Part shown: piece after piece, positions 22,559 through 64,000 of the stretch | Numbering within the stretch: position 1 is the first letter of the stretch | Layout: each line of letters begins with the position of its first letter | From: Flectonema sp. DT1601 | Taxonomy: Eukaryota | Assembly (NCBI GenBank): GCA_964019425.1 | Contig: OZ025781.1 | Coordinates: 1,736,001 to 1,800,000, forward strand | Reading direction: 5' to 3' | Length of the DNA stretch: 64,000 bases | Notes under the pieces: model-generated | Told to the model about the DNA's origin: nothing | Databases searched by the model: none | Seen by the model: the letters and a program-made list of their open reading frames with translations, nothing else | Position numbers and translations under genes: made by a program

Positions 22559-22736
22559 ATCACATCACTGCTGAGATCACATCACTGCTGAGATCACATC
22601 ACTGCTGAGATCACATCACTGCTGAGATCACATCACTGCTGAGATCACATCACTGCTGAGATCACATCACTGCTGAGATCACATCACTGCTGAGATCACA
22701 TCACTGCTGAGATCACATCACTGCTGAGATCACATC
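22559..22736. repeat. Perfect 17-bp minisatellite (CACATCACTGCTGAGAT), about 10.5 copies
   Basis: Read directly: period 17 bp, no spacers. Confidence 0.97.
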
Positions 22737-42153: not shown

Positions 42154-42709
42154 AAACGAATGTCTAGATTTTTACTGTACAATTTTAATGTTCTTGTATT
42201 CAAGTTTAGTTGTTTATTTTCAGTGCTTTCATTTAAACTGCTGTTTCCCCCATAAGGACGATTCCAACACGGCAAAGATGTATGCAGCTAAGTTAACATT
42301 TATTACTTCAGTGATTATAAAAACGTGGTCTTTCCCTTGTAATAGCTTGCATGGAGCATGTCCCCAGCCCACTATGCTGATGCAGAGAGCAGAATTGTCG
42401 CGCACATTGCAGAGATAAGTTTGACAGACCTGTTGTGAATGATTTATAAAATAATTTCAAATGCAACAGATAACCCAAGCCACATGCCCAATAACCCACT
42501 GTAACCTAGCCGCGGTTTTCATTCTTGCATATTTACAAAAAAAAAGAAAATTAACCCTTACCACCATAAGAACCCCTAAAACAACAGGTCCAATTATGTT
42601 TTTTCAAAAAGAGAAAAGGTACCCCCCCAGAAATAACGATACTGGATGAGGGCAAAACCCAAGAAAATTTCTCATAAGGAATTTAAAAAAAGGCAAGAAT
42701 GATAAAAAG

Positions 42710-43258
42710 ATGATTAAGATTACTGACACTTCTAAAACACAGAAACCGACAACAATAACTTGCACAGATCAAATAATCAATGCGATTAAAACTACTACGA
42801 AAAATGACACCTGCGCCAACACATCTGATAATGGCAATACGGATGAGACATCAAAGAAGAACAAGAACTCATGCATTCTGCCACCTATCACACCGCCACA
42901 AAGATCTATAGAACCGACATATGTAGACACAGATAATATCAAGAGAATATGTCGATACTGTGGGAAGACTAAAAAATCGATTATTCATCATTTAACCAAA
43001 TGCTAATTGTTCAAAGCTTCAAAGGACTATCCGACTTATATAGATGAAGATGATAAGACGAGATATGAAGTTACAAACGAAAAGATTAATGAGAATAATA
43101 AAGTTATCTCGGTAATCAAGGACAGAGAGACAACCAGTATGCGATCTATCAAGAAAAGCGGCAAGTTAATAACACAAACGATTCATGTCAAAAATCCGTC
43201 TACCATCTTTATTATATCCAAAGTTTTTTTAGTACAATTATTCACAAGAAACACTTAG
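42710..43258 (+). pseudogene. Decayed A-rich coding relic with a CxxC...H...C zinc-finger motif, possibly transposon-derived
   Basis: Two abutting in-frame ORFs split by one stop. The first ends CRYCGKTKKSIIHHLTKC. Composition differs from neighbouring genes. Confidence 0.3.
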
Positions 43259-43339
43259 CAAAATTCGGATTCCAGAAAAAAAAAATTTTTTTTTTTTGAC
43301 CTTTTTTTTTTTGACTTTCTGATACTAAATTATCGACGG

Positions 43340-43795
43340 TTAAAGTTCTACAGGCTGGTCTTGTGTACCAAGGCTGTTAAGATTAGTCTCGGTCCAGAAT
43401 CGAAACGATTGTTGCCTGTGCATTACCTCTGCATACCAACCTGGTGGGGGCTTGATAACTATGTCTTGAATGTTGAGGTTGCTTCCAGATACATAAGCGT
43501 GGTTCATATTTAGAGCCCAGAAAAGGACAACATATCCACAAATAACGTTGTTGGTAGCTGGTTGCACACCAGTCTTAATAAATGAGATGTCAAAATTACT
43601 AAAAGCAAAACGGAGTGCCGCTTTGGTAGTGCTGGTGATGCAGTCTAGACGAGGATCAACTACAACTAAGGAGTTCCCTTCCCCAATAGTTGTAACAGCC
43701 AGTAGCCAGTGTGAGGTTTCATACTTTTTTATAGTTTTTTTTCTGAGAATCCACCATCTTAAGTTCCAAGTGAGATTTGGACTGTTAGCTTTTGG
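43340..43795 (-). pseudogene. Ulp1/C48-like cysteine protease relic
   Basis: I extended the 43340-43567 frame by hand; it is open to 43795 and reads SHWLLAV...VVVDPR...GVQPATNNVICGYVV, the H-D-Q-C order of Ulp1 proteases. There is an in-frame TAG at 43796-43798 and no ATG ahead of the domain. Confidence 0.5.
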
Positions 43796-44115: not shown

Positions 44116-44116
44116 G

Positions 44117-44188
44117 TTCCTCCTCTGGGGTTCGAACCCAGGTCGCCTGGGTGAAAGCCAGGTATACTAACCACTGTACTAAAGAGGA
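44117..44188 (-). tRNA. tRNA-Glu: tRNA-Glu(TTC)
   Basis: TCCTCTTTAGTACAGTGGTTAGTATACCTGGCTTTCACCCAGGCGACCTGGGTTCGAACCCCAGAGGAGGAA folds as a cloverleaf, with anticodon arm CCTGG-CTTTCAC-CCAGG and T-loop TTCGAAC. Confidence 0.96.
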
Positions 44189-44439
44189 CATATTACTTTT
44201 CTTTTTTTTTTTTTTTTTTTTTTTTTTGGTTACACTCGTCTGTGCTTCCAGACTCTTTGTTTTTGTTCTTTTCACTTCTTTGTTTTGTCTTTCTTTTATA
44301 CTTTCTTTTGGTTTAAGTCTGACAAATTGGAAAACACGGGAAACATAGGTAGGCTCCGCCTGAGGACGTAAGAAGAGCGGCAACGGGAAAAAATAAATGG
44401 TCACGCGTCCTTGAAATTGGACACACGAAGCTAATTCGG

Positions 44440-44659
44440 TTACCATTCCTACCATCGATAAGGAAAAACAAAGAATCGAGCATATAACTAGAGCGGTGGT
44501 CAAAGACCACTTGAACAGCCCGAAGGCCTGCCCTCAAGAGAAATTTATAAGGAGAATAGGAGAAAAAGGAGACAGGAGTGTTGGAAGAGACACTGCGACA
44601 ACACCGAAGGTGATGTGCAGTTACCCAACCAGGAGATGATTGATAATGATGAAAATACT
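44440..44659. repeat. 220-bp non-terminal direct repeat, 3' UTR copy
   Basis: Identical by eye to 50180-50399 (offset 5740 bp). Confidence 0.97.
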
Positions 44660-44687
44660 AAATATTGATAAAACACTTAAATGGCGA

Positions 44688-47600
44688 CTACGTGTCACCT
44701 ACACAATTCCAAAGTCTCAGGTTGGATGCTTGTTCCATCCACCTGATCAACATCGCTACTGAAGGAAGCCAGCTGGTGGCAAAGATTGAGCCAAGACTGG
44801 CAGGAATGCCGTTGATGAGGATTAGATCACTTGATCGGTCCCATTTGCCTGTCAATGTAGAAAAGCCAAGGATTTCATATCTGGCTGCATCGAGTTTCTG
44901 TGATGGACAGCCTACGAGTAGGTGGAGTTGGTTGGATGGAGCGCTATGGCAGAATGGACATTTGATGGCTTTCCGCCAGTTTTGCATCAGTGGATGACAC
45001 CCCGTTCTAAAATTCGCAATTCTGATTTCATCGCTCCTTTTCATGTCGGGAGGATATTTTATCGCGGCACCTTTGACGGTGTTTTTATAGCAAGTGTAAC
45101 CAATTCTGTTCCAAATGTCCTTCGTGATCCCCCTCCTCACTCGGGATTTGTGATAGAAGAAGGATCCTCGGATTGGGATTTGAGGGAGGTATCTGTTGTG
45201 AGCCGATTTCTTAGCAAGTTCATCAACTTCGTCGTGTGCTTCTATCCCCATATGAGAAGGGATGAATTGAAGATGTACTTTCATACCGCAGTTCCGTAGG
45301 TTCTCGAGGATGCCGAGGGATCTGGTGTTTCTCTGTTTACACCTGCCACCCTTCAACTCGTCCAACAATGATTTTGAGTCGGTATAGATTCTGACTGACT
45401 TAGTTAGCCCGTCTTTCTGTACCTTCCAGTTTAAGTAGTTTGCCGCATTTTTCAAGGCATGTTGCTCAGTTCTGTAGCTGCAATCCGCACGCACTAATCT
45501 GGTCGCATGAGCACGTTTCTTTCCGTCTCGTGACCTAGCAATGAGAGCCGCGCCTGACGCATTCGAAGAGTATGAACCGTCACAGTTGATCACCATGTCC
45601 ACCGGAGGAAGTGTCGCGTTGTAGGTAAGGAATTTCTCCCTGTCCACTGCGGGATCAGGGGATTTTGTAAAACCGCAGCTGTTGCTGATTTGAACATTGT
45701 CCGAAGCAATCCAAGGTTTGATAGAGTCAGGTTGAACGATCCCCACACTTTCTAGTTGACCTTCAGAACGGGGAATGAGGCCACCCCAGAAGCTTCGAGG
45801 CGATGCGAGTGAGTTGGTGTCCGGCACCCAGGTCATGGCTTTGTACCTGAAATAGGCAATTTTAGTCTGCTTTTCGATTTGTCTTTTAAACGGTAAGATG
45901 TCGGCTTCCCAAAGGAGCAACTCCCTCGGAGTACATCTGCTGCATCCTGTTACGAGTCTCGCTATTTTTCTCATCTCGAAGTCGATAGCATCCGTTTTAT
46001 GCTGGTTGAGCAACCAACCAAAGCTGTCCAGTGCATAGGAAATCCTCGCTGTCACGTACAAGTTTTTAACCATCTTTAGGGTCTTGTAGTCCAATTCATA
46101 TGGCTGGAGGCACTGCAGAAGGGAGATCCCTTTCTTCAGTTCGTCGTGTATTTTCTCTAACTGTTTATCAAACCTGAGCCTGTTATCAATGTAAACACCC
46201 AGATATTTCACTGAGTCCGTGATCGGCAGTAGGAAGGCAATTTTAATTTTCGCTTTGACATTCATCTCGTCGTGGATGTTCAACATCAGTAAATCTTCTA
46301 ATTCTTGTTGAGTCCTGATGGGTTTCCCCTCTACTTCGAGGATCGTTTCACCACTCAGTAAAGTGGGCCTTGTCGTCGTCGTGTTGATCACGCTGTCTAG
46401 ATCAAAATAGTCAATATCTAACGAACGTACTTCCAGTGATTTTGAGAATAAGAGTTCGCGGTCGCTAGTATCAGTCAGGGTTACTTCTTTCGATTGAATA
46501 TCCATTTTCAGAGCGCAAGTCTTGGAGACTGAAAGTGCCATGTCATTATCACGGCACCACTTGTCAACGATGTCAAGTATTCGTTGAGCGTTTGAGATTG
46601 CTTCGTCCATGGTCGAGCCAAATACTGCACAAGCGGTGTCGTCTGCATACAGTGCGGTCAAAGTCGTTTCCTTCTCTTGTGAGAGAATCTTACACAGATC
46701 GTCAACATATATTAAATAGAGTAGTGGGCCTAAGATTGATCCTTGAGGCACTCCTTTTGACAGCGTACGAAACTTACTGAAATGTCCATTTGCATCAACT
46801 CTGACCTTCCTATTGGTTAGAAAGTCCGTTATCCATCGAACGATGAAGGTTGGGATGCCCATTCTTTGTAGTTTTGAAAGTAAAATTCGATGGTTAATCC
46901 TATCGAAGGCTGCTGTGAAATCGAATGACAAGAAGACTGACCTCCTCCCCTTCGTGTGGTTGTTTACCATGGCGTCCACCAGAATTGTGATTTGTTCGCA
47001 GGTATTTCTGCCCCGTCTGAAGCCAGCTTGAATCGGACTGAGTGCTGAGTTTTCGGTAAGCCAATGCATGAGCCTGTCGTACACCAACCTCTCAGCCAGT
47101 TTGCCAACAACCGAAGTGAGTGTGATTGGTCTGTAGCTTTTAATATCGTTCCGCGGTTTGCCCGACTTGAACATCGGTTTGATTAACCCCTGTTTCCAAA
47201 GATATGGAACATTGGAGGATCTCCACGAAGAATTGATCACCTTTAATAAACAGTCAACTGCCTTCTGAGATAAGTTCTTAAGCATTTCGTTGTGAATACC
47301 GTCAGGGCCTGCTGCTTTGCGAGGCTTCAGGTTTTTAATTGCTGCTGATATCTCGGTATCTGTGAAGTCACAACAGATGTCCAATTCCAAGTCTTCTTTC
47401 TTCAATGAAGGGGCTTCGAGTTTAGCAGCATCCCCATCGGCCACAGAGAGGTCCAGAAATGCTGCAGGTAAATCGTTCTCAGATATATTTGATACGCTGA
47501 TGTCCTTACCAGCGTCCTGTTGGAGTTCTTTAATCTTCTTGAAGGCGAAGTTAAAGTTGTTCCCCTTCCTCAGTTGGTCTTTCAGGTGACTACCTTTTGA

Positions 47601-48668
47601 TTTTATAGATTCAGGTGAAGAGGTCTTCCACTTACGTCGGCGCTTGCCCTTAAATAAGATTCTCCTCCGCACGTTCCTCGCAGCTACTTCATGTATTATG
47701 TTATTTAATAATCCAACATTACCAGTGGCATCATCCGAGAACTTAGCCCTATCAATTCTTCTATCAAGTTGCTGTCTGAAAGCACTCCAGTTTGTAGATT
47801 TGAAATCCCAGACAGTTCGTTTCCTTGCTCCAACTGTTGCTTGAGAGAGGTGAGCCATTGTGTCGAAGATAGCGAGTAGAGGTCGATGATCCGAGTTATG
47901 TTTACTGTCTTCATTTATGATTGAAAATTCTTCTAATACAATTGATCCTTTAAAGAATATAACGTCAGGTGAGGTACCACCGCCAGGAATGTCGTGTTTG
48001 GGCCGAGTTATTTGACCAGGTCTGTTTGCTACGAGAACGTCATTGCGATCCGCCCAATTAAATAATTCTTTACCAGATTTGGTTGTCCTGGTAGACCAGA
48101 CGAGGTTGTGTGCGTTGAAGTCGCCCGCAATAATAGACTTCGTTGTGATCGGAAGATCATCTTCTCTAATGATACACCCAGGGGGAGCGTAAACGTTAAT
48201 AACATTGACACCACCAACATTCAGCATCATAGCTTCGATACCGCTTGTTCTCGAAAACAATTCTTCATCACTGATTCCTTGTGAGAAGCATCTCTTTGCC
48301 ATTATTATAATGCCACCACCTTTTGTATTTCTGTCCTTCCTATATGTATAATAGCCAGGGTGCGAAATGTGTTCCTTCGACCAGGTTTCCTGTAAGCACA
48401 GTACATCCGGCGAGTAGTGAGAAAGGAGTCTTTGAATATAAGACCCCTTCTGACTTATCGATCTACAGTTCCAGCTCAACACTGAGAGTAACGAATTTTC
48501 AGGTCCAGGGTTGCGTTCAACGTCGCCTGCCAGCAGTAATAAACTTCGGGTCAGTTCTTTTTCAGTTTGAGAGATAGTCGGTGCTGTTACAGTAGTCGGC
48601 TTCACCAGAACTTTACTATGATGTGAGTCATTTTTAGAATTTGAAGTTGACGGTGTTCGTTTGTCAAG
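44688..48668 (-). CDS. Retrotransposon ORF2: 2A peptide, AP endonuclease, reverse transcriptase, RNase H, CCHC knuckle
   Basis: 2A: LLLLAGDVERNPGP. APE: SWNCRS, LCLQET, AGDFNAH, SDHRP. RT: KAAGPDGI, YRPITLTS, GVPQGSILGP, YADD, KYLGV. RNase H: NCDGS, YRTE, YTDSKS, PSHMG...DELAK. Knuckle: CPFC...HLLVGC. The frame is open back to the ORF1 stop, with no ATG before the endonuclease. Confidence 0.95.
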   Translation of the reverse strand, partial: LDKRTPSTSNSKNDSHHSKVLVKPTTVTAPTISQTEKELTRSLLLLAGDVERNPGPENSLLSVLSWNCRSISQKGSYIQRLLSHYSPDVLCLQETWSKEHISHPGYYTYRKDRNTKGGGIIIMAKRCFSQGISDEELFSRTSGIEAMMLNVGGVNVINVYAPPGCIIREDDLPITTKSIIAGDFNAHNLVWSTRTTKSGKELFNWADRNDVLVANRPGQITRPKHDIPGGGTSPDVIFFKGSIVLEEFSIINEDSKHNSDHRPLLAIFDTMAHLSQATVGARKRTVWDFKSTNWSAFRQQLDRRIDRAKFSDDATGNVGLLNNIIHEVAARNVRRRILFKGKRRRKWKTSSPESIKSKGSHLKDQLRKGNNFNFAFKKIKELQQDAGKDISVSNISENDLPAAFLDLSVADGDAAKLEAPSLKKEDLELDICCDFTDTEISAAIKNLKPRKAAGPDGIHNEMLKNLSQKAVDCLLKVINSSWRSSNVPYLWKQGLIKPMFKSGKPRNDIKSYRPITLTSVVGKLAERLVYDRLMHWLTENSALSPIQAGFRRGRNTCEQITILVDAMVNNHTKGRRSVFLSFDFTAAFDRINHRILLSKLQRMGIPTFIVRWITDFLTNRKVRVDANGHFSKFRTLSKGVPQGSILGPLLYLIYVDDLCKILSQEKETTLTALYADDTACAVFGSTMDEAISNAQRILDIVDKWCRDNDMALSVSKTCALKMDIQSKEVTLTDTSDRELLFSKSLEVRSLDIDYFDLDSVINTTTTRPTLLSGETILEVEGKPIRTQQELEDLLMLNIHDEMNVKAKIKIAFLLPITDSVKYLGVYIDNRLRFDKQLEKIHDELKKGISLLQCLQPYELDYKTLKMVKNLYVTARISYALDSFGWLLNQHKTDAIDFEMRKIARLVTGCSRCTPRELLLWEADILPFKRQIEKQTKIAYFRYKAMTWVPDTNSLASPRSFWGGLIPRSEGQLESVGIVQPDSIKPWIASDNVQISNSCGFTKSPDPAVDREKFLTYNATLPPVDMVINCDGSYSSNASGAALIARSRDGKKRAHATRLVRADCSYRTEQHALKNAANYLNWKVQKDGLTKSVRIYTDSKSLLDELKGGRCKQRNTRSLGILENLRNCGMKVHLQFIPSHMGIEAHDEVDELAKKSAHNRYLPQIPIRGSFFYHKSRVRRGITKDIWNRIGYTCYKNTVKGAAIKYPPDMKRSDEIRIANFRTGCHPLMQNWRKAIKCPFCHSAPSNQLHLLVGCPSQKLDAARYEILGFSTLTGKWDRSSDLILINGIPASLGSIFATSWLPSVAMLIRWMEQASNLRLWNCVGDT

Positions 48669-50093
48669 TCAGTTTGAATTATCCATTTCCACATCAGTCG
48701 TTTCAGTAGTATCGGTTGGTTCTTCAGCACAGTGTCGCTTCAGATCACCAGATATAACTGGACCCTTGCCCGGGTTGAAGGTCGGCCCCAATTTGACCGG
48801 CTTTTCTCTTTTAGTTTCCATGTTGATTACAAGGTACGCATCTTTACCCATGTCGACGAAGCTTGGTGATGGAACCGATTCAGAGATTGCAATTAACGTT
48901 TTGTTGCCTCCCTTATGAAAACTAGCCACAATTGTGTGACTCCACTTGTATGCGTGCAACAGGTGATCGCTGATCTGTTGCGTCGTGAACTTCTTAATAG
49001 CCAGTGATTTAATTATAAAACGCTGACCAGTCGGCAGTGCGGGTTTCAGAGAATCCCCGAGTGATTCTCTCACTTTTTGAGTAAACCCGGGTTGAACTTT
49101 CAGCCCAAAGCACTCTCGGAACTTCGTGATGTAGAAGCTACCTTTGATTGCTGAAAGAACTGAAAGTTTGCCCAGCACCGCTTTGAAGCCCAAGTCCTTA
49201 ACGAACTGAACTGTGTTCCAAGAGTCTTGGCCATTAGACCAAGATGGGTTTCTGATGAATAGATCTCTCTTCTCACTGGAGGTGTCGCTGTTGTTGTATT
49301 CCAGAATTTCAGAAATTCTGAAGTTTGGCACACGGATCGCCATAGATGTGTGCATATCGCATTTTTTAAATCCGAAGGGCGATGTCTTCAGCTCCCACTT
49401 TTTAATTAATTCTTTCACCTTAGTGGTGAGAGTGCTCTCTGCTGATTTACTCCAGTCTTGTATGAATAGAACTGGGTCCGGCTGTGGTGGCTCGATGGCG
49501 TCTTCTCTTGCGGCAGTGAAATCTTTGCCACAAATCGGGGTGACAAATACCCTACGAATGACGCAGGTTCCGCACTTCTTTACGACTGGAAGTGCGACTG
49601 GGACTGTTGTTTTAAACAGTTTAGACTTTGAGATGGCAGTCCAGTCGCCCTTCGTTCGTGTTTGCTTCAGTGCTTCATAATCAGCCTTTGAGCTGATGAG
49701 CACGAGTCCGTCCGCGTTGTTTTTGGAGGCATCGATTGCTTCTGAGAATTTAAGCGTAGGTGTTGCTTTAGCCCACGCTGCGTGAATGTACCACTCTGGC
49801 AGAGTGGGTTTCTTGTTGTTGGTAGTTGGCGTCGGGCCTCCATCATTTCCATCCCTCACCGTGCTCGCCGCTTCCTGTCGTTGTCCCCCGGACTCCTTCC
49901 CCTTCCTCTCTTGCTCTGTCGTCTTTCTCTTTGACGACTCTCCTTGTTTCTCTCCGGAGTCCTCCGTCAGCTGCTCCAGCACTCTCATCGTGAGAGTCAA
50001 AACCCTCCTTCTCTTTTCTTCTCCTGCTAGTCCTTTCTCCACTTCTTGTACTAACCGCATCACATCCAAAAGCAGCTCCTTACAACTGCTCAT
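48669..50093 (-). CDS. Retrotransposon ORF1 (474 aa from the first ATG; function unknown, putative RNA-binding/chaperone)
   Basis: Long basic ORF directly upstream of and in frame with ORF2, with a helical N-terminus. An AG (ctgacag) lies shortly upstream of the ATG at 50093. Confidence 0.8.
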   Translation of the reverse strand: MSSCKELLLDVMRLVQEVEKGLAGEEKRRRVLTLTMRVLEQLTEDSGEKQGESSKRKTTEQERKGKESGGQRQEAASTVRDGNDGGPTPTTNNKKPTLPEWYIHAAWAKATPTLKFSEAIDASKNNADGLVLISSKADYEALKQTRTKGDWTAISKSKLFKTTVPVALPVVKKCGTCVIRRVFVTPICGKDFTAAREDAIEPPQPDPVLFIQDWSKSAESTLTTKVKELIKKWELKTSPFGFKKCDMHTSMAIRVPNFRISEILEYNNSDTSSEKRDLFIRNPSWSNGQDSWNTVQFVKDLGFKAVLGKLSVLSAIKGSFYITKFRECFGLKVQPGFTQKVRESLGDSLKPALPTGQRFIIKSLAIKKFTTQQISDHLLHAYKWSHTIVASFHKGGNKTLIAISESVPSPSFVDMGKDAYLVINMETKREKPVKLGPTFNPGKGPVISGDLKRHCAEEPTDTTETTDVEMDNSN

Positions 50094-50179
50094 TATAGTT
50101 TTATGTCTGTCAGAAAACCCGCACAAAATCGACTCTCACCAGGTAATGGTAGGAAATCAATAAAGTACAGAAGAATTTT

Positions 50180-50399
50180 TTACCATTCCTACCATCGATA
50201 AGGAAAAACAAAGAATCGAGCATATAACTAGAGCGGTGGTCAAAGACCACTTGAACAGCCCGAAGGCCTGCCCTCAAGAGAAATTTATAAGGAGAATAGG
50301 AGAAAAAGGAGACAGGAGTGTTGGAAGAGACACTGCGACAACACCGAAGGTGATGTGCAGTTACCCAACCAGGAGATGATTGATAATGATGAAAATACT
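50180..50399. repeat. 220-bp non-terminal direct repeat, 5' UTR copy
   Basis: Identical by eye to 44440-44659. Confidence 0.97.
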
Positions 50400-51027
50400 G
50401 GAAAGGAGATACCGCAAGCAGCGATCAAGAATCCGGTGAAACACCCGACGAAGGGATGGTGTGATAGGTGTGGAGAGCGGATCGCGAAGGGAACGCGGGT
50501 AGTCATGTGCGTGAAGTGTGACTACGCTGAATGCTGCGGATTGTTGGAGAGATCGCGGCGTGGGAAAGAGAAGAGGAAAAGGAAATCACGGGGATCGCGA
50601 TCGAAAAACGATGCCATGTGAGAAGCATGAAACGGAAAGTGAATGAACGGAAAAAATTAAATGTAAAGAAGTGAACTTGTAAAAAATGTAAAGAAGCAAA
50701 CATGTTAAAAGAAAAATGAAAAAAAAAAAAAAAAGAAGAGTGAAAAGGAAGACAGAGTTGTATGTAAACTGTATGTAAATGTAAGAAGAAAGAAAAAACA
50801 CGCTGGAAGTGGGAGTGCAACCATCAGCGCAAACACAACCACAAATATTGTTTTTTTTTTCCTTTTTCTTTTCTTCGCTTCGGCGACAGATATGGTAGGA
50901 CCTAGAAAACCGGCCCAAAACTTGTGTTGCAGTTTATCTTTTTAGCGCACACTCATGTAACATAAGGATCGCTGGTTCCGAGGGTTTGCTCTCCTGCCAT
51001 ACTTGCCTCTCACCTCCCTCAAAAAAA

Positions 51028-51066
51028 AACCAACGATTCTAAAGCTACAGTTTCTGTACTTTATTG
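51028..51066 (+). other. Complete 39-nt spliced-leader exon in processed (trans-spliced) form
   Basis: AACCAACGATTCTAAAGCTACAGTTTCTGTACTTTATTG has the kinetoplastid/diplonemid SL length and the conserved ACAGTTTCTGTACTWTATTG 3' half. It is not followed by an SL-intron GT donor. Confidence 0.93.
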
Positions 51067-54000
51067 TTTTTTCCCTCCCTCGCCCCATCCCCGTCAGCGA
51101 GTAGGAAAGCGCAGCTAGGAATTTTTCCACGCAAGCGGATCCCACAACCCGACCACCCTTCCCCACGCTCACCCCATCCACCCTCCCCCACCCCAACAAA
51201 AGAAGAAAACGGCGGCAGCCACGTGACACACTCGTGTTCGTGTAGCGAAGCGTTTCGGCGACTTCGAAGACGACGACGACGACGACGACGTAGAAGAGAC
51301 GGTGTATGTGACTGACCTTCTTCTTCCTTATTTATCTATTTACTTTTGTTAATTACTTCCTCTTAATTTCATTCCTCTCTTAGATTGTTGTTTATTTGCT
51401 TATTTATTTGTTTGTTTATTTGTCTGTTTATCTGTCTGTATATTCTGTTACTATCTGTTATCTTGTTACATTTATCTGTATATTAGAGTACATTTTTGTT
51501 ATTGTTAAATTAAAACATCTTCTTCACAGTTTTTTCCCTCCCTCGCCCCATCCCCGTCAGCGAGTAGGAAAGCGCAGCTAGGAATTTTTCCACGCAAGCG
51601 GATCCCACAACCCGACCACCCTTCCCCACGCTCACCCCATCCACCCTCCCCCACCCCAACAAAAGAAGAAAACGGCGGCAGCCACGTGACACACTCGTGT
51701 TCGTGTAGCGAAGCGTTTCGGCGACTTCGAAGACGACGACGACGACGACGACGTAGAAGAGACGGTGTATGTGACTGACCTTCTTCTTCCTTATTTATCT
51801 ATTTACTTTTGTTAATTACTTCCTCTTAATTTCATTCCTCTCTTAGATTGTTGTTTATTTGCTTATTTATTTGTTTGTTTATTTGTCTGTTTATCTGTCT
51901 GTATATTCTGTTACTATCTGTTATCTTGTTACATTTATCTGTATATTAGAGTACATTTTTGTTATTGTTAAATTAAAACATCTTCTTCACAGTTTTTTCC
52001 CTCCCTCGCCCCATCCCCGTCAGCGAGTAGGAAAGCGCAGCTAGGAATTTTTCCACGCAAGCGGATCCCACAACCCGACCACCCTTCCCCACGCTCACCC
52101 CATCCACCCTCCCCCACCCCAACAAAAGAAGAAAACGGCGGCAGCCACGTGACACACTCGTGTTCGTGTAGCGAAGCGTTTCGGCGACTTCGAAGACGAC
52201 GACGACGACGACGACGTAGAAGAGACGGTGTATGTGACTGACCTTCTTCTTCCTTATTTATCTATTTACTTTTGTTAATTACTTCCTCTTAATTTCATTC
52301 CTCTCTTAGATTGTTGTTTATTTGCTTATTTATTTGTTTGTTTATTTGTCTGTTTATCTGTCTGTATATTCTGTTACTATCTGTTATCTTGTTACATTTA
52401 TCTGTATATTAGAGTACATTTTTGTTATTGTTAAATTAAAACATCTTCTTCACAGTTTTTTCCCTCCCTCGCCCCATCCCCGTCAGCGAGTAGGAAAGCG
52501 CAGCTAGGAATTTTTCCACGCAAGCGGATCCCACAACCCGACCACCCTTCCCCACGCTCACCCCATCCACCCTCCCCCACCCCAACAAAAGAAGAAAACG
52601 GCGGCAGCCACGTGACACACTCGTGTTCGTGTAGCGAAGCGTTTCGGCGACTTCGAAGACGACGACGACGACGACGACGTAGAAGAGACGGTGTATGTGA
52701 CTGACCTTCTTCTTCCTTATTTATCTATTTACTTTTGTTAATTACTTCCTCTTAATTTCATTCCTCTCTTAGATTGTTGTTTATTTGCTTATTTATTTGT
52801 TTGTTTATTTGTCTGTTTATCTGTCTGTATATTCTGTTACTATCTGTTATCTTGTTACATTTATCTGTATATTAGAGTACATTTTTGTTATTGTTAAATT
52901 AAAACATCTTCTTCACAGTTTTTTCCCTCCCTCGCCCCATCCCCGTCAGCGAGTAGGAAAGCGCAGCTAGGAATTTTTCCACGCAAGCGGATCCCACAAC
53001 CCGACCACCCTTCCCCACGCTCACCCCATCCACCCTCCCCCACCCCAACAAAAGAAGAAAACGGCGGCAGCCACGTGACACACTCGTGTTCGTGTAGCGA
53101 AGCGTTTCGGCGACTTCGAAGACGACGACGACGACGACGACGTAGAAGAGACGGTGTATGTGACTGACCTTCTTCTTCCTTATTTATCTATTTACTTTTG
53201 TTAATTACTTCCTCTTAATTTCATTCCTCTCTTAGATTGTTGTTTATTTGCTTATTTATTTGTTTGTTTATTTGTCTGTTTATCTGTCTGTATATTCTGT
53301 TACTATCTGTTATCTTGTTACATTTATCTGTATATTAGAGTACATTTTTGTTATTGTTAAATTAAAACATCTTCTTCACAGTTTTTTCCCTCCCTCGCCC
53401 CATCCCCGTCAGCGAGTAGGAAAGCGCAGCTAGGAATTTTTCCACGCAAGCGGATCCCACAACCCGACCACCCTTCCCCACGCTCACCCCATCCACCCTC
53501 CCCCACCCCAACAAAAGAAGAAAACGGCGGCAGCCACGTGACACACTCGTGTTCGTGTAGCGAAGCGTTTCGGCGACTTCGAAGACGACGACGACGACGA
53601 CGACGTAGAAGAGACGGTGTATGTGACTGACCTTCTTCTTCCTTATTTATCTATTTACTTTTGTTAATTACTTCCTCTTAATTTCATTCCTCTCTTAGAT
53701 TGTTGTTTATTTGCTTATTTATTTGTTTGTTTATTTGTCTGTTTATCTGTCTGTATATTCTGTTACTATCTGTTATCTTGTTACATTTATCTGTATATTA
53801 GAGTACATTTTTGTTATTGTTAAATTAAAACATCTTCTTCACAGTTTTTTCCCTCCCTCGCCCCATCCCCGTCAGCGAGTAGGAAAGCGCAGCTAGGAAT
53901 TTTTCCACGCAAGCGGATCCCACAACCCGACCACCCTTCCCCACGCTCACCCCATCCACCCTCCCCCACCCCAACAAAAGAAGAAAACGGCGGCAGCCAC

Positions 54001-57000
54001 GTGACACACTCGTGTTCGTGTAGCGAAGCGTTTCGGCGACTTCGAAGACGACGACGACGACGACGACGTAGAAGAGACGGTGTATGTGACTGACCTTCTT
54101 CTTCCTTATTTATCTATTTACTTTTGTTAATTACTTCCTCTTAATTTCATTCCTCTCTTAGATTGTTGTTTATTTGCTTATTTATTTGTTTGTTTATTTG
54201 TCTGTTTATCTGTCTGTATATTCTGTTACTATCTGTTATCTTGTTACATTTATCTGTATATTAGAGTACATTTTTGTTATTGTTAAATTAAAACATCTTC
54301 TTCACAGTTTTTTCCCTCCCTCGCCCCATCCCCGTCAGCGAGTAGGAAAGCGCAGCTAGGAATTTTTCCACGCAAGCGGATCCCACAACCCGACCACCCT
54401 TCCCCACGCTCACCCCATCCACCCTCCCCCACCCCAACAAAAGAAGAAAACGGCGGCAGCCACGTGACACACTCGTGTTCGTGTAGCGAAGCGTTTCGGC
54501 GACTTCGAAGACGACGACGACGACGACGACGTAGAAGAGACGGTGTATGTGACTGACCTTCTTCTTCCTTATTTATCTATTTACTTTTGTTAATTACTTC
54601 CTCTTAATTTCATTCCTCTCTTAGATTGTTGTTTATTTGCTTATTTATTTGTTTGTTTATTTGTCTGTTTATCTGTCTGTATATTCTGTTACTATCTGTT
54701 ATCTTGTTACATTTATCTGTATATTAGAGTACATTTTTGTTATTGTTAAATTAAAACATCTTCTTCACAGTTTTTTCCCTCCCTCGCCCCATCCCCGTCA
54801 GCGAGTAGGAAAGCGCAGCTAGGAATTTTTCCACGCAAGCGGATCCCACAACCCGACCACCCTTCCCCACGCTCACCCCATCCACCCTCCCCCACCCCAA
54901 CAAAAGAAGAAAACGGCGGCAGCCACGTGACACACTCGTGTTCGTGTAGCGAAGCGTTTCGGCGACTTCGAAGACGACGACGACGACGACGACGTAGAAG
55001 AGACGGTGTATGTGACTGACCTTCTTCTTCCTTATTTATCTATTTACTTTTGTTAATTACTTCCTCTTAATTTCATTCCTCTCTTAGATTGTTGTTTATT
55101 TGCTTATTTATTTGTTTGTTTATTTGTCTGTTTATCTGTCTGTATATTCTGTTACTATCTGTTATCTTGTTACATTTATCTGTATATTAGAGTACATTTT
55201 TGTTATTGTTAAATTAAAACATCTTCTTCACAGTTTTTTCCCTCCCTCGCCCCATCCCCGTCAGCGAGTAGGAAAGCGCAGCTAGGAATTTTTCCACGCA
55301 AGCGGATCCCACAACCCGACCACCCTTCCCCACGCTCACCCCATCCACCCTCCCCCACCCCAACAAAAGAAGAAAACGGCGGCAGCCACGTGACACACTC
55401 GTGTTCGTGTAGCGAAGCGTTTCGGCGACTTCGAAGACGACGACGACGACGACGACGTAGAAGAGACGGTGTATGTGACTGACCTTCTTCTTCCTTATTT
55501 ATCTATTTACTTTTGTTAATTACTTCCTCTTAATTTCATTCCTCTCTTAGATTGTTGTTTATTTGCTTATTTATTTGTTTGTTTATTTGTCTGTTTATCT
55601 GTCTGTATATTCTGTTACTATCTGTTATCTTGTTACATTTATCTGTATATTAGAGTACATTTTTGTTATTGTTAAATTAAAACATCTTCTTCACAGTTTT
55701 TTCCCTCCCTCGCCCCATCCCCGTCAGCGAGTAGGAAAGCGCAGCTAGGAATTTTTCCACGCAAGCGGATCCCACAACCCGACCACCCTTCCCCACGCTC
55801 ACCCCATCCACCCTCCCCCACCCCAACAAAAGAAGAAAACGGCGGCAGCCACGTGACACACTCGTGTTCGTGTAGCGAAGCGTTTCGGCGACTTCGAAGA
55901 CGACGACGACGACGACGACGTAGAAGAGACGGTGTATGTGACTGACCTTCTTCTTCCTTATTTATCTATTTACTTTTGTTAATTACTTCCTCTTAATTTC
56001 ATTCCTCTCTTAGATTGTTGTTTATTTGCTTATTTATTTGTTTGTTTATTTGTCTGTTTATCTGTCTGTATATTCTGTTACTATCTGTTATCTTGTTACA
56101 TTTATCTGTATATTAGAGTACATTTTTGTTATTGTTAAATTAAAACATCTTCTTCACAGTTTTTTCCCTCCCTCGCCCCATCCCCGTCAGCGAGTAGGAA
56201 AGCGCAGCTAGGAATTTTTCCACGCAAGCGGATCCCACAACCCGACCACCCTTCCCCACGCTCACCCCATCCACCCTCCCCCACCCCAACAAAAGAAGAA
56301 AACGGCGGCAGCCACGTGACACACTCGTGTTCGTGTAGCGAAGCGTTTCGGCGACTTCGAAGACGACGACGACGACGACGACGTAGAAGAGACGGTGTAT
56401 GTGACTGACCTTCTTCTTCCTTATTTATCTATTTACTTTTGTTAATTACTTCCTCTTAATTTCATTCCTCTCTTAGATTGTTGTTTATTTGCTTATTTAT
56501 TTGTTTGTTTATTTGTCTGTTTATCTGTCTGTATATTCTGTTACTATCTGTTATCTTGTTACATTTATCTGTATATTAGAGTACATTTTTGTTATTGTTA
56601 AATTAAAACATCTTCTTCACAGTTTTTTCCCTCCCTCGCCCCATCCCCGTCAGCGAGTAGGAAAGCGCAGCTAGGAATTTTTCCACGCAAGCGGATCCCA
56701 CAACCCGACCACCCTTCCCCACGCTCACCCCATCCACCCTCCCCCACCCCAACAAAAGAAGAAAACGGCGGCAGCCACGTGACACACTCGTGTTCGTGTA
56801 GCGAAGCGTTTCGGCGACTTCGAAGACGACGACGACGACGACGACGTAGAAGAGACGGTGTATGTGACTGACCTTCTTCTTCCTTATTTATCTATTTACT
56901 TTTGTTAATTACTTCCTCTTAATTTCATTCCTCTCTTAGATTGTTGTTTATTTGCTTATTTATTTGTTTGTTTATTTGTCTGTTTATCTGTCTGTATATT

Positions 57001-60000
57001 CTGTTACTATCTGTTATCTTGTTACATTTATCTGTATATTAGAGTACATTTTTGTTATTGTTAAATTAAAACATCTTCTTCACAGTTTTTTCCCTCCCTC
57101 GCCCCATCCCCGTCAGCGAGTAGGAAAGCGCAGCTAGGAATTTTTCCACGCAAGCGGATCCCACAACCCGACCACCCTTCCCCACGCTCACCCCATCCAC
57201 CCTCCCCCACCCCAACAAAAGAAGAAAACGGCGGCAGCCACGTGACACACTCGTGTTCGTGTAGCGAAGCGTTTCGGCGACTTCGAAGACGACGACGACG
57301 ACGACGACGTAGAAGAGACGGTGTATGTGACTGACCTTCTTCTTCCTTATTTATCTATTTACTTTTGTTAATTACTTCCTCTTAATTTCATTCCTCTCTT
57401 AGATTGTTGTTTATTTGCTTATTTATTTGTTTGTTTATTTGTCTGTTTATCTGTCTGTATATTCTGTTACTATCTGTTATCTTGTTACATTTATCTGTAT
57501 ATTAGAGTACATTTTTGTTATTGTTAAATTAAAACATCTTCTTCACAGTTTTTTCCCTCCCTCGCCCCATCCCCGTCAGCGAGTAGGAAAGCGCAGCTAG
57601 GAATTTTTCCACGCAAGCGGATCCCACAACCCGACCACCCTTCCCCACGCTCACCCCATCCACCCTCCCCCACCCCAACAAAAGAAGAAAACGGCGGCAG
57701 CCACGTGACACACTCGTGTTCGTGTAGCGAAGCGTTTCGGCGACTTCGAAGACGACGACGACGACGACGACGTAGAAGAGACGGTGTATGTGACTGACCT
57801 TCTTCTTCCTTATTTATCTATTTACTTTTGTTAATTACTTCCTCTTAATTTCATTCCTCTCTTAGATTGTTGTTTATTTGCTTATTTATTTGTTTGTTTA
57901 TTTGTCTGTTTATCTGTCTGTATATTCTGTTACTATCTGTTATCTTGTTACATTTATCTGTATATTAGAGTACATTTTTGTTATTGTTAAATTAAAACAT
58001 CTTCTTCACAGTTTTTTCCCTCCCTCGCCCCATCCCCGTCAGCGAGTAGGAAAGCGCAGCTAGGAATTTTTCCACGCAAGCGGATCCCACAACCCGACCA
58101 CCCTTCCCCACGCTCACCCCATCCACCCTCCCCCACCCCAACAAAAGAAGAAAACGGCGGCAGCCACGTGACACACTCGTGTTCGTGTAGCGAAGCGTTT
58201 CGGCGACTTCGAAGACGACGACGACGACGACGACGTAGAAGAGACGGTGTATGTGACTGACCTTCTTCTTCCTTATTTATCTATTTACTTTTGTTAATTA
58301 CTTCCTCTTAATTTCATTCCTCTCTTAGATTGTTGTTTATTTGCTTATTTATTTGTTTGTTTATTTGTCTGTTTATCTGTCTGTATATTCTGTTACTATC
58401 TGTTATCTTGTTACATTTATCTGTATATTAGAGTACATTTTTGTTATTGTTAAATTAAAACATCTTCTTCACAGTTTTTTCCCTCCCTCGCCCCATCCCC
58501 GTCAGCGAGTAGGAAAGCGCAGCTAGGAATTTTTCCACGCAAGCGGATCCCACAACCCGACCACCCTTCCCCACGCTCACCCCATCCACCCTCCCCCACC
58601 CCAACAAAAGAAGAAAACGGCGGCAGCCACGTGACACACTCGTGTTCGTGTAGCGAAGCGTTTCGGCGACTTCGAAGACGACGACGACGACGACGACGTA
58701 GAAGAGACGGTGTATGTGACTGACCTTCTTCTTCCTTATTTATCTATTTACTTTTGTTAATTACTTCCTCTTAATTTCATTCCTCTCTTAGATTGTTGTT
58801 TATTTGCTTATTTATTTGTTTGTTTATTTGTCTGTTTATCTGTCTGTATATTCTGTTACTATCTGTTATCTTGTTACATTTATCTGTATATTAGAGTACA
58901 TTTTTGTTATTGTTAAATTAAAACATCTTCTTCACAGTTTTTTCCCTCCCTCGCCCCATCCCCGTCAGCGAGTAGGAAAGCGCAGCTAGGAATTTTTCCA
59001 CGCAAGCGGATCCCACAACCCGACCACCCTTCCCCACGCTCACCCCATCCACCCTCCCCCACCCCAACAAAAGAAGAAAACGGCGGCAGCCACGTGACAC
59101 ACTCGTGTTCGTGTAGCGAAGCGTTTCGGCGACTTCGAAGACGACGACGACGACGACGACGTAGAAGAGACGGTGTATGTGACTGACCTTCTTCTTCCTT
59201 ATTTATCTATTTACTTTTGTTAATTACTTCCTCTTAATTTCATTCCTCTCTTAGATTGTTGTTTATTTGCTTATTTATTTGTTTGTTTATTTGTCTGTTT
59301 ATCTGTCTGTATATTCTGTTACTATCTGTTATCTTGTTACATTTATCTGTATATTAGAGTACATTTTTGTTATTGTTAAATTAAAACATCTTCTTCACAG
59401 TTTTTTCCCTCCCTCGCCCCATCCCCGTCAGCGAGTAGGAAAGCGCAGCTAGGAATTTTTCCACGCAAGCGGATCCCACAACCCGACCACCCTTCCCCAC
59501 GCTCACCCCATCCACCCTCCCCCACCCCAACAAAAGAAGAAAACGGCGGCAGCCACGTGACACACTCGTGTTCGTGTAGCGAAGCGTTTCGGCGACTTCG
59601 AAGACGACGACGACGACGACGACGTAGAAGAGACGGTGTATGTGACTGACCTTCTTCTTCCTTATTTATCTATTTACTTTTGTTAATTACTTCCTCTTAA
59701 TTTCATTCCTCTCTTAGATTGTTGTTTATTTGCTTATTTATTTGTTTGTTTATTTGTCTGTTTATCTGTCTGTATATTCTGTTACTATCTGTTATCTTGT
59801 TACATTTATCTGTATATTAGAGTACATTTTTGTTATTGTTAAATTAAAACATCTTCTTCACAGTTTTTTCCCTCCCTCGCCCCATCCCCGTCAGCGAGTA
59901 GGAAAGCGCAGCTAGGAATTTTTCCACGCAAGCGGATCCCACAACCCGACCACCCTTCCCCACGCTCACCCCATCCACCCTCCCCCACCCCAACAAAAGA

Positions 60001-63000
60001 AGAAAACGGCGGCAGCCACGTGACACACTCGTGTTCGTGTAGCGAAGCGTTTCGGCGACTTCGAAGACGACGACGACGACGACGACGTAGAAGAGACGGT
60101 GTATGTGACTGACCTTCTTCTTCCTTATTTATCTATTTACTTTTGTTAATTACTTCCTCTTAATTTCATTCCTCTCTTAGATTGTTGTTTATTTGCTTAT
60201 TTATTTGTTTGTTTATTTGTCTGTTTATCTGTCTGTATATTCTGTTACTATCTGTTATCTTGTTACATTTATCTGTATATTAGAGTACATTTTTGTTATT
60301 GTTAAATTAAAACATCTTCTTCACAGTTTTTTCCCTCCCTCGCCCCATCCCCGTCAGCGAGTAGGAAAGCGCAGCTAGGAATTTTTCCACGCAAGCGGAT
60401 CCCACAACCCGACCACCCTTCCCCACGCTCACCCCATCCACCCTCCCCCACCCCAACAAAAGAAGAAAACGGCGGCAGCCACGTGACACACTCGTGTTCG
60501 TGTAGCGAAGCGTTTCGGCGACTTCGAAGACGACGACGACGACGACGACGTAGAAGAGACGGTGTATGTGACTGACCTTCTTCTTCCTTATTTATCTATT
60601 TACTTTTGTTAATTACTTCCTCTTAATTTCATTCCTCTCTTAGATTGTTGTTTATTTGCTTATTTATTTGTTTGTTTATTTGTCTGTTTATCTGTCTGTA
60701 TATTCTGTTACTATCTGTTATCTTGTTACATTTATCTGTATATTAGAGTACATTTTTGTTATTGTTAAATTAAAACATCTTCTTCACAGTTTTTTCCCTC
60801 CCTCGCCCCATCCCCGTCAGCGAGTAGGAAAGCGCAGCTAGGAATTTTTCCACGCAAGCGGATCCCACAACCCGACCACCCTTCCCCACGCTCACCCCAT
60901 CCACCCTCCCCCACCCCAACAAAAGAAGAAAACGGCGGCAGCCACGTGACACACTCGTGTTCGTGTAGCGAAGCGTTTCGGCGACTTCGAAGACGACGAC
61001 GACGACGACGACGTAGAAGAGACGGTGTATGTGACTGACCTTCTTCTTCCTTATTTATCTATTTACTTTTGTTAATTACTTCCTCTTAATTTCATTCCTC
61101 TCTTAGATTGTTGTTTATTTGCTTATTTATTTGTTTGTTTATTTGTCTGTTTATCTGTCTGTATATTCTGTTACTATCTGTTATCTTGTTACATTTATCT
61201 GTATATTAGAGTACATTTTTGTTATTGTTAAATTAAAACATCTTCTTCACAGTTTTTTCCCTCCCTCGCCCCATCCCCGTCAGCGAGTAGGAAAGCGCAG
61301 CTAGGAATTTTTCCACGCAAGCGGATCCCACAACCCGACCACCCTTCCCCACGCTCACCCCATCCACCCTCCCCCACCCCAACAAAAGAAGAAAACGGCG
61401 GCAGCCACGTGACACACTCGTGTTCGTGTAGCGAAGCGTTTCGGCGACTTCGAAGACGACGACGACGACGACGACGTAGAAGAGACGGTGTATGTGACTG
61501 ACCTTCTTCTTCCTTATTTATCTATTTACTTTTGTTAATTACTTCCTCTTAATTTCATTCCTCTCTTAGATTGTTGTTTATTTGCTTATTTATTTGTTTG
61601 TTTATTTGTCTGTTTATCTGTCTGTATATTCTGTTACTATCTGTTATCTTGTTACATTTATCTGTATATTAGAGTACATTTTTGTTATTGTTAAATTAAA
61701 ACATCTTCTTCACAGTTTTTTCCCTCCCTCGCCCCATCCCCGTCAGCGAGTAGGAAAGCGCAGCTAGGAATTTTTCCACGCAAGCGGATCCCACAACCCG
61801 ACCACCCTTCCCCACGCTCACCCCATCCACCCTCCCCCACCCCAACAAAAGAAGAAAACGGCGGCAGCCACGTGACACACTCGTGTTCGTGTAGCGAAGC
61901 GTTTCGGCGACTTCGAAGACGACGACGACGACGACGACGTAGAAGAGACGGTGTATGTGACTGACCTTCTTCTTCCTTATTTATCTATTTACTTTTGTTA
62001 ATTACTTCCTCTTAATTTCATTCCTCTCTTAGATTGTTGTTTATTTGCTTATTTATTTGTTTGTTTATTTGTCTGTTTATCTGTCTGTATATTCTGTTAC
62101 TATCTGTTATCTTGTTACATTTATCTGTATATTAGAGTACATTTTTGTTATTGTTAAATTAAAACATCTTCTTCACAGTTTTTTCCCTCCCTCGCCCCAT
62201 CCCCGTCAGCGAGTAGGAAAGCGCAGCTAGGAATTTTTCCACGCAAGCGGATCCCACAACCCGACCACCCTTCCCCACGCTCACCCCATCCACCCTCCCC
62301 CACCCCAACAAAAGAAGAAAACGGCGGCAGCCACGTGACACACTCGTGTTCGTGTAGCGAAGCGTTTCGGCGACTTCGAAGACGACGACGACGACGACGA
62401 CGTAGAAGAGACGGTGTATGTGACTGACCTTCTTCTTCCTTATTTATCTATTTACTTTTGTTAATTACTTCCTCTTAATTTCATTCCTCTCTTAGATTGT
62501 TGTTTATTTGCTTATTTATTTGTTTGTTTATTTGTCTGTTTATCTGTCTGTATATTCTGTTACTATCTGTTATCTTGTTATATTTATCTGTATATTAGAG
62601 TACATTTTTGTTATTGTTAAATTAAAACATCTTCTTCACAGTTTTTTCCCTCCCTCGCCCCATCCCCGTCAGCGAGTAGGAAAGCGCAGCTAGGAATTTT
62701 TCCACGCAAGCGGATCCCACAACCCGACCACCCTTCCCCACGCTCACCCCATCCACCCTCCCCCACCCCAACAAAAGAAGAAAACGGCGGCAGCCACGTG
62801 ACACACTCGTGTTCGTGTAGCGAAGCGTTTCGGCGACTTCGAAGACGACGACGACGACGACGACGTAGAAGAGACGGTGTATGTGACTGACCTTCTTCTT
62901 CCTTATTTATCTATTTACTTTTGTTAATTACTTCCTCTTAATTTCATTCCTCTCTTAGATTGTTGTTTATTTGCTTATTTATTTGTTTGTTTATTTGTCT

Positions 63001-64000
63001 GTTTATCTGTCTGTATATTCTGTTACTATCTGTTATCTTGTTACATTTATCTGTATATTAGAGTACATTTTTGTTATTGTTAAATTAAAACATCTTCTTC
63101 ACAGTTTTTTCCCTCCCTCGCCCCATCCCCGTCAGCGAGTAGGAAAGCGCAGCTAGGAATTTTTCCACGCAAGCGGATCCCACAACCCGACCACCCTTCC
63201 CCACGCTCACCCCATCCACCCTCCCCCACCCCAACAAAAGAAGAAAACGGCGGCAGCCACGTGACACACTCGTGTTCGTGTAGCGAAGCGTTTCGGCGAC
63301 TTCGAAGACGACGACGACGACGACGACGTAGAAGAGACGGTGTATGTGACTGACCTTCTTCTTCCTTATTTATCTATTTACTTTTGTTAATTACTTCCTC
63401 TTAATTTCATTCCTCTCTTAGATTGTTGTTTATTTGCTTATTTATTTGTTTGTTTATTTGTCTGTTTATCTGTCTGTATATTCTGTTACTATCTGTTATC
63501 TTGTTACATTTATCTGTATATTAGAGTACATTTTTGTTATTGTTAAATTAAAACATCTTCTTCACAGTTTTTTCCCTCCCTCGCCCCATCCCCGTCAGCG
63601 AGTAGGAAAGCGCAGCTAGGAATTTTTCCACGCAAGCGGATCCCACAACCCGACCACCCTTCCCCACGCTCACCCCATCCACCCTCCCCCACCCCAACAA
63701 AAGAAGAAAACGGCGGCAGCCACGTGACACACTCGTGTTCGTGTAGCGAAGCGTTTCGGCGACTTCGAAGACGACGACGACGACGACGACGTAGAAGAGA
63801 CGGTGTATGTGACTGACCTTCTTCTTCCTTATTTATCTATTTACTTTTGTTAATTACTTCCTCTTAATTTCATTCCTCTCTTAGATTGTTGTTTATTTGC
63901 TTATTTATTTGTTTGTTTATTTGTCTGTTTATCTGTCTGTATATTCTGTTACTATCTGTTATCTTGTTACATTTATCTGTATATTAGAGTACATTTTTGT
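51067..64000. repeat. Tandem array of a 463-bp unit: 27 full copies plus one partial, running off the window
   Basis: The ORF track recurs every 463 bp. Units start at 51067+463k, after cacAG. The only variant I noticed is C>T at 62581. Confidence 0.98.

Follow-up and report, generated by a model that had tools for sequence, protein, structure and literature searches.

The poly(A) tail of a young and intact LINE was found to end 13 bp upstream of a tRNA-Glu gene in Flectonema sp. DT1601, and the family to which this element belongs probably inserts 13-16 bp upstream of many different tRNA genes, which it would select by position through a tether to the complex that initiates Pol III transcription. 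The window considered, i.e., the whole 64,000-nucleotide stretch of DNA analyzed (contig OZ025781.1, positions 1,736,001 to 1,800,000), presents on its minus strand an A26 run (44227-44202), a 13-bp spacer (44201-44189), the target tRNA-Glu(TTC) gene (44188-44117) and a T7 Pol III terminator (44115-44109), in that order. The tRNA gene was delineated by both ARAGORN (44116-44188) and Rfam (RF00005, 44117-44188; 65 bits), with all pairs of the model being standard. An earlier note on this DNA was hence exact in its coordinates when placing the A26 run 13 bp 5' of the first base of the mature tRNA-Glu (44188) and in the same orientation, and its description of the gene and terminator as intact holds. 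With genome size and tRNA number being assumed inputs, the chance that a sense-oriented tail would fall upstream of a tRNA gene at a distance of 20 bp or less was put at about 1e-4 per copy.

Because long homopolymers are common in the window, independent proof that the A26 run is a tail was needed. Indeed, the caution expressed earlier as to the frequency of long T runs was warranted, with 19 A/T runs of at least 15 nt being counted within positions 1-51066 of the window. The flanks of other copies were read from spurious gene calls in which the frame remains open through the end of the 3' module of the element and the tail. When the frame of the module end was compared with 1.84 billion representatives, 13 matches were obtained, 12 of which read through the tail; with two cluster members that likewise do so (P0236 and P0173), this provided a total of 14 loci. 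At all 14, the same 3' end is followed by lysines and then by differing sequence. In this manner, the assignment of the A-run as a retroelement poly(A) tail was confirmed, and the reading of T26 as a host pyrimidine tract was ruled out. The sample is biased, consisting only of copies whose frame is open and called and which stand for a 50% cluster, and frames may be kept open by the tRNA sequence itself. The flanks, moreover, are back-translated peptides and not DNA, and AAG codons inside the lysine run can shorten the apparent spacer. The origin of P0261-P0273 in the same organism was assumed from identity to the module, with the tails belonging to the family of the window (family A) or to its sister, family B.

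In four of the 14, the tail gives way to a further element or to leader-like repeats (P0236, P0173, P0267 and P0269, the continuation of the last being our own reading of FCT repeats) and two flanks were too short (P0261 and P0271), leaving eight that were testable. A permissive, upper-bound tRNA fit, which was blind to short flanks and separated only long ones (P0262, P0273, the window control and, marginally, P0266b), was replaced by a codon-exact A-box test. A strict A-box together with base 8 was found 20-25 nt after the lysine run in five of the eight (P0262, P0263, P0266, P0268 and P0273). Relaxing the A-box added P0264, with a non-canonical base 8, to give six of eight, while no A-box was found within 20-25 nt in P0265 and P0272. 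The null frequency was 2-4% (64/3000 and 71/2000 for 20-25 nt, and 108/3000 for 15-25 nt), and the binomial p value was 2.7e-6; the interval tested had been set in part by P0262 and P0273, and p was 7.9e-4 without these two. Back-translation of P0262 and P0273 gave complete cloverleaves, scoring 42.5 and 45, respectively, vs. a null maximum of 35, and both were called as tRNAs by ARAGORN, as were 0/40 null peptides. P0266 received no ARAGORN call and scored 33.5, inside the null range. The target seen in P0266, and also in P0233, is a tRNA-like gene that has both an A and a B box and yields no standard cloverleaf by back-translation, and could be an intron-bearing tRNA gene or another Pol III gene.

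Counted from the first non-A base, the spacers at these six loci measure 16, 16, 16, 16, 16 and 13 nt, with the spacer in the window measuring 13 nt. The tight distance distribution across different tRNAs that the earlier note had named as support for position-specific targeting was thus seen, within the reach of peptide read-throughs. In PMC5006619, tRNA targeting is recognized by several copies lying at a similar distance from tRNA genes; here, tails were found at 13-16 nt from the gene at seven loci, six of them read from peptides. These loci involve different isotypes and no shared target sequence. Indeed, spacer sequences are unrelated across loci, whereas all tails lie in the tRNA sense. 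Anticodons were read as AAC, TYG (by back-translation) and TRA (by hand) vs. TTC in the window, although isotypes are ambiguous at wobble positions, with the window control back-translating as Lys-TTT and the true gene being Glu-TTC. Because the spacers differ and the anticodons differ from that of Glu, targeting appears to proceed by position and not by sequence; as one spacer begins with TT, pairing with the tail is not needed. That the distance to an internal promoter is fixed although no sequence is shared suggests that the Pol III complex serves as the ruler, while the long T-runs of the window do not explain the tail-tRNA geometry.

Other collections were also searched. For DNA flanks of other copies, an exact 24-mer was looked for in metagenome, viral and prokaryote contigs, with no match. 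Profile scans returned 80 distant loci at 25-35% identity, none with an ARAGORN tRNA, and zero loci in the other two collections. In an exact look-up of 10 ORFs, six were absent from the collection, namely, five junction-spanning or flank ORFs and one more. Three sequencing runs were listed as containing the sequence, each at a low share, with no RNA run among those listed. Contigs from sequencing runs end at the T-run, such that no 3' flank is visible in these.

The element bearing the A26 tail is a young, intact, two-ORF LINE of 5.9 kb on the minus strand. ORF2 (44688..48668; 1326 codons from stop to stop) comprises an APE endonuclease, an RT, an RNase H-type region and a C-terminal CxxC..H..C motif. 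As in APE-type LINEs, the endonuclease and RT are found within one ORF, both above the Pfam cut-off (Exo_endo_phos and RVT_1), and the best PDB sequence matches of ORF2 are to L1 ORF2p. An RNase_H Pfam match was obtained on the homologue P0003 only, with the acidic residues being aligned in the ORF2 of the window. The translation also contains a putative 2A-like motif, GDVERNPGP (48501..48527), directly N-terminal to the APE domain, the 2A signature being GD(V/I)ExNPGP (PMC3708506). ORF1 (48669..50093; 474 aa) lies in the same frame as ORF2, divided from it by a single TGA (48666-48671, minus strand), with no ATG ahead of the 2A-like motif. Given this junction and that motif, translation may involve read-through or re-initiation, with ribosome skipping thereafter. 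ORF1 matched no Pfam family and no entry in the Atlas; its low-confidence model (mean pLDDT of 49) yielded weak tandem ACT/ferredoxin-like Foldseek rows and no Foldseek match at E≤0.001. As is typical of LINEs, the poly(A) tail is accompanied by dispersed 5'-truncated copies, with the ORF2 cluster comprising 37 members. No target-site duplication was found at the tRNA-Glu locus; a duplicate of the spacer is absent 5' of the LINE, where the best match to the right of ORF1 consists of 6-9 low-complexity bases. Such duplications are also described as being absent from about half of L1Tc copies (PMC5814959).

The 3' UTR between ORF2 and the tail spans 460 nt, most of which corresponds to a 432-nt 3' module (44228..44659, minus strand) that is multi-copy and common to sister family B. 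The folding of this module is unremarkable (z -1.9), and its being a tRNA-derived SINE head was ruled out, as it contains neither an A nor a B box. At its other end, the LINE begins with the 3'-terminal 15 nt of the spliced leader (50158..50172, minus strand), identical to the 3' end of the leader found at 51028-51066, which suggests the copying of a trans-spliced RNA. The same 15-nt remnant is common to the 5' ends of family A and family B (P0236) copies, and P0269, when read by eye, resembles reiterated pieces of this remnant (FCT repeats). A reproducible RT stop inside the spliced leader is possible. It was also noted, post hoc, that 10 nt at the 5' end of the LINE (50146-50155) perfectly complement 10 nt of the 3' UTR (44446-44455). 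This complement adjoins the point at which the upstream module piece considered next comes to an end, and 66/2000 shuffles hold such a complement anywhere.

A 220-bp second copy of the 5' half of the 3' module (50180..50399, minus strand), 100% identical to 44440-44659, lies next to the leader remnant, with 7 extra bases linking the two. This piece may be either an older stacked copy or the product of a template jump, the latter being an activity described for R2 proteins (PMC11371274). The far flank of the stack (50400..50621, plus strand) is a 5'-cut piece of an unrelated repeat containing a small Cys-rich ORF. On two other contigs (P0255 and P0256), the match starts exactly at 50400 and is preceded by other sequence, ruling out the 220-bp repeat as a long target-site duplication. 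As read from the sequence, the locus would be a two-member head-to-tail stack from which upstream DNA was lost or a single insertion that involved a template jump.

The 5' junctions of other copies were considered in 118 listed cluster members (at most 15 per cluster) of the 331 in those clusters. Among the 118, a tally by hand counted 12 foreign N-terminal junctions, including one uncertain case of 7 residues. Four end in a lysine run and three are module-derived, for a combined five; as background, 0.6% of host non-coding positions follow at least 11 A. Together with the four tails that lead into another element or a leader remnant, these lysine-run junctions support the stacking of copies. 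The remaining seven are neither, one being P0233, where the junction is with the 3' part of the tRNA-like gene of P0266. In P0266 itself, spacer and gene appear twice (33 residues) around a truncated module, while in P0271, the 3' part of a tRNA and a T-run precede a truncated module. These arrangements could be accounted for by a long duplication of the target, by a tandem duplication or by an insertion between tRNA genes that are clustered.

Such junctions bear on the possibility that the LINE prefers long A/T tracts, as does Zorro3, and survives in repeat-rich gaps between gene clusters, with nearness to tRNA genes being incidental. The abundance of A/T runs in positions 1-51066, the four foreign junctions following a lysine run and the several unrelated repeat pieces in the same gap all agree with this scenario, as do accounts of Zorro3 integrating at poly-A without target-site duplications (PMC3956500) and of repeats filling the gaps between gene clusters in Diplonema papillatum (PMC10161547). 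Nonetheless, it is very improbable, since the 13-16 nt spacing ahead of an A-box at six further loci would go unexplained, and since eight of the 12 foreign junctions among the listed members have no preceding lysine run. Moreover, two of the four junctions that do are element tails, although host tracts should far outnumber tails. It also seems unlikely that the endonuclease simply cuts DNA exposed beside the TFIIIC footprint, with the shape of the DNA or the openness of the chromatin at the Pol III start sufficing without tethering. The same distances are predicted in this case, and ORF1 presents no known domain, yet a single strict orientation and a 4-bp range would better fit an oriented dock, and the cases studied, namely, Ty3 and TRE5-A, are described as using TFIIIB contacts (PMC5911963). 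Finally, amplification of one ancestral unit of 3' module, tail and tRNA by segmental duplication or 3' transduction, which would render the loci non-independent, could draw on the 33-residue duplication of spacer and tRNA-like gene in P0266. This is scarcely credible, however, given how anticodons, spacers and genes differ by locus and how none of the six flanks fits that of the window, with 16-19 of 30 letters being shared.

Were insertion to rely on tethering to the Pol III initiation complex, as favored here, it could proceed as follows. The LINE RNA would be trans-spliced, given that copies start with a leader remnant, and polyadenylated. A particle of ORF1 and ORF2 would dock on TFIIIC/TFIIIB bound at a tRNA gene, with TFIIIB being the likely dock, by analogy with Ty3 and TRE5-A, and ORF1, again by analogy, a candidate adaptor; in TRE5-A, ORF1 is described as binding TFIIIB (PMC5006619, PMC5911963). 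The APE domain would then nick the template strand of the tRNA gene near the transcription start, and the RT would copy the RNA from its tail, such target-primed reverse transcription (TPRT) fixing the tail-to-head orientation. In yeast, Pol III is described as starting ~12 bp before the mature tRNA +1 (PMC5006619); if the same were true here, priming would occur ~1-4 bp upstream of the start site. With its internal A and B boxes intact, the gene would stay active and could be hit again at the same distance, and reuse of the intact site would push older copies outward to form head-to-tail stacks. The 5' junction would be variable, being blunt with loss of upstream DNA, as at the tRNA-Glu locus, or at times involving duplication of the target gene.

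The likeness to Ty3 and TRE5 drawn in the earlier note stands for the distance of Ty3 and only loosely for TRE5. Ty3 of S. cerevisiae and DGLT-A of Dictyostelium are reported ~15 bp and 13-33 bp upstream from mature tRNA, respectively, the same range as used by the Flectonema LINE (PMC5006619, PMC5911963), and Ty3 is said there to use TFIIIB (PMC5911963). Both, however, are LTR elements that employ an integrase and insert in either orientation, whereas the Flectonema LINE would employ TPRT and inserts in one orientation. TRE5-A of Dictyostelium discoideum is likewise a two-ORF APE/RT non-LTR element with an oligo(A) tail that assumes a fixed position and orientation upstream of tRNA genes, and it too has a module repeated at both ends (PMC5911963), although the 5' repeat of the Flectonema LINE would be a stacked piece and not built in. 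TRE5 elements are, moreover, described 40-54 bp upstream with their 5' end facing the tRNA (PMC5911963, PMC3159450), while in the Flectonema LINE it is the tail that faces the tRNA, at 13-16 bp upstream. To the APE-RT-ZF organization of TRE5-A ORF2, the latter adds the RNase H-type region, the 2A-like motif and the leader remnant. As such, the Flectonema LINE works like Ty3 and TRE5 yet is not a TRE5. Dp_NLTR-A and Pp_NLTR-B of dictyostelids are also RNase H-bearing non-LTR elements found upstream of tRNA genes, at 2-6 bp and 39-64 bp, respectively (PMC5006619), a comparison made by description, kinship aside.

With Ingi/L1Tc of trypanosomes, the Flectonema LINE shares a euglenozoan host, a 2A-like motif before the APE domain, an RT followed by RNase H, poly(A) and tandem copies (PMC5814959, PMC3708506). 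Ingi/L1Tc is, however, described in these sources as having a single ORF, a 5' Pr77 promoter/ribozyme, unspliced RNA and a weak sequence preference, unlike the Flectonema LINE with its leader remnant and its 474-aa ORF1, conserved in families A and B and in one Flectonema transcript. In the parts of the L1Tc review considered (PMC5814959), tRNA is mentioned nowhere. Zorro3 of Candida albicans likewise shows junctions at poly-A without target-site duplications, yet it belongs to the L1 clade and targets A-tracts, with no fixed tRNA distance reported in the portion of the source available (PMC3956500).

The closest named relatives of both ORF1 and ORF2 are from Flectonema neradi and then from Diplonema papillatum, and the host was accordingly read as a diplonemid. 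Because ORF1 differs by one residue from a variant present on 7 contigs and ORF2 by one residue from a variant on 6 contigs, the family is taken to be young. Four sister families (B-E), 42-68% identical in ORF2, occur on contigs of the same lengths as this one and are likely co-resident in the same assembly. A contig from sequencing run X3 pairs a family B-like ORF2 end with sequence that matches 44427-44660 but for 2 substitutions and 1 gap, showing the 3' module to be shared with that family. In an RT tree drawn without named clade references, nine close rows were joined (92/99), and D. papillatum formed a long branch next to these. The 26 pairs of families sharing a contig would be as expected of random placement were the genome to measure 60 Mb, and would amount to an excess only above ~100 Mb. 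The family E ORF2 of P0188 is fused at residue 1177 to 175 further residues that by eye resemble a DDE transposase, suggestive of a nested DNA transposon. It can be proposed, albeit tentatively and with considerable doubt, that the five co-resident families define a diplonemid LINE group in which the promoter was swapped for host trans-splicing, docking occurs in the sense orientation at the Pol III start site, and occasional duplication of a whole tRNA (a ~100-bp target duplication) multiplied landing sites and reshaped the tRNA set.

Position-specific insertion at Pol III genes is listed for fungal and dictyostelid cases only in the parts of two reviews that were available (PMC5006619, PMC5911963), and no report of tRNA-upstream targeting in Euglenozoa was found among the literature matches listed, most subscription journals lying outside their scope. 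If true, the behavior described here would likely be an independent case of Pol III targeting in Discoba, involving a LINE that shares the distance of Ty3 and whose orientation is the reverse of that of TRE5. TFIIIB tethering would thereby be tested as a general solution, in a lineage that transcribes polycistronically and in which free landing space is scarce. The existence of young, intact copies would make the targeting determinant mappable, a matter of relevance to the use of retroelement proteins for site-directed gene insertion. As to annotation, LINE stacks likely conceal the tRNA loci of this genome.

Several other repeats were noted in the window. On the plus strand, a spliced leader of the full 39 nt is found at 51028-51066, with an A-run ahead of it. 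Over 51028-64000, this leader is joined, at the position of an AG acceptor, to a 463-bp tandem array at its first unit, the 28 copies of which are 99% identical and end in a pyrimidine tract and CAG. The arrangement resembles a trans-spliced RNA that was retrocopied and stands at the head of the array. On a contig of run X3, the same 39-nt leader is followed by GT, as expected of a leader RNA gene. Downstream of tRNA-Glu lie two repeat fragments (42662-43201, plus strand, and 43315-43714), one of which matches P0258 on another contig, while contigs from both run X1 and run X3 cover the other. The minus-strand ORF of the fragment so covered, for which no Pfam match was obtained, appears by eye to be Ulp1-protease-like. 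Elsewhere, at 22559-22736, a perfect 17-bp tandem repeat is present in 10.5 copies.
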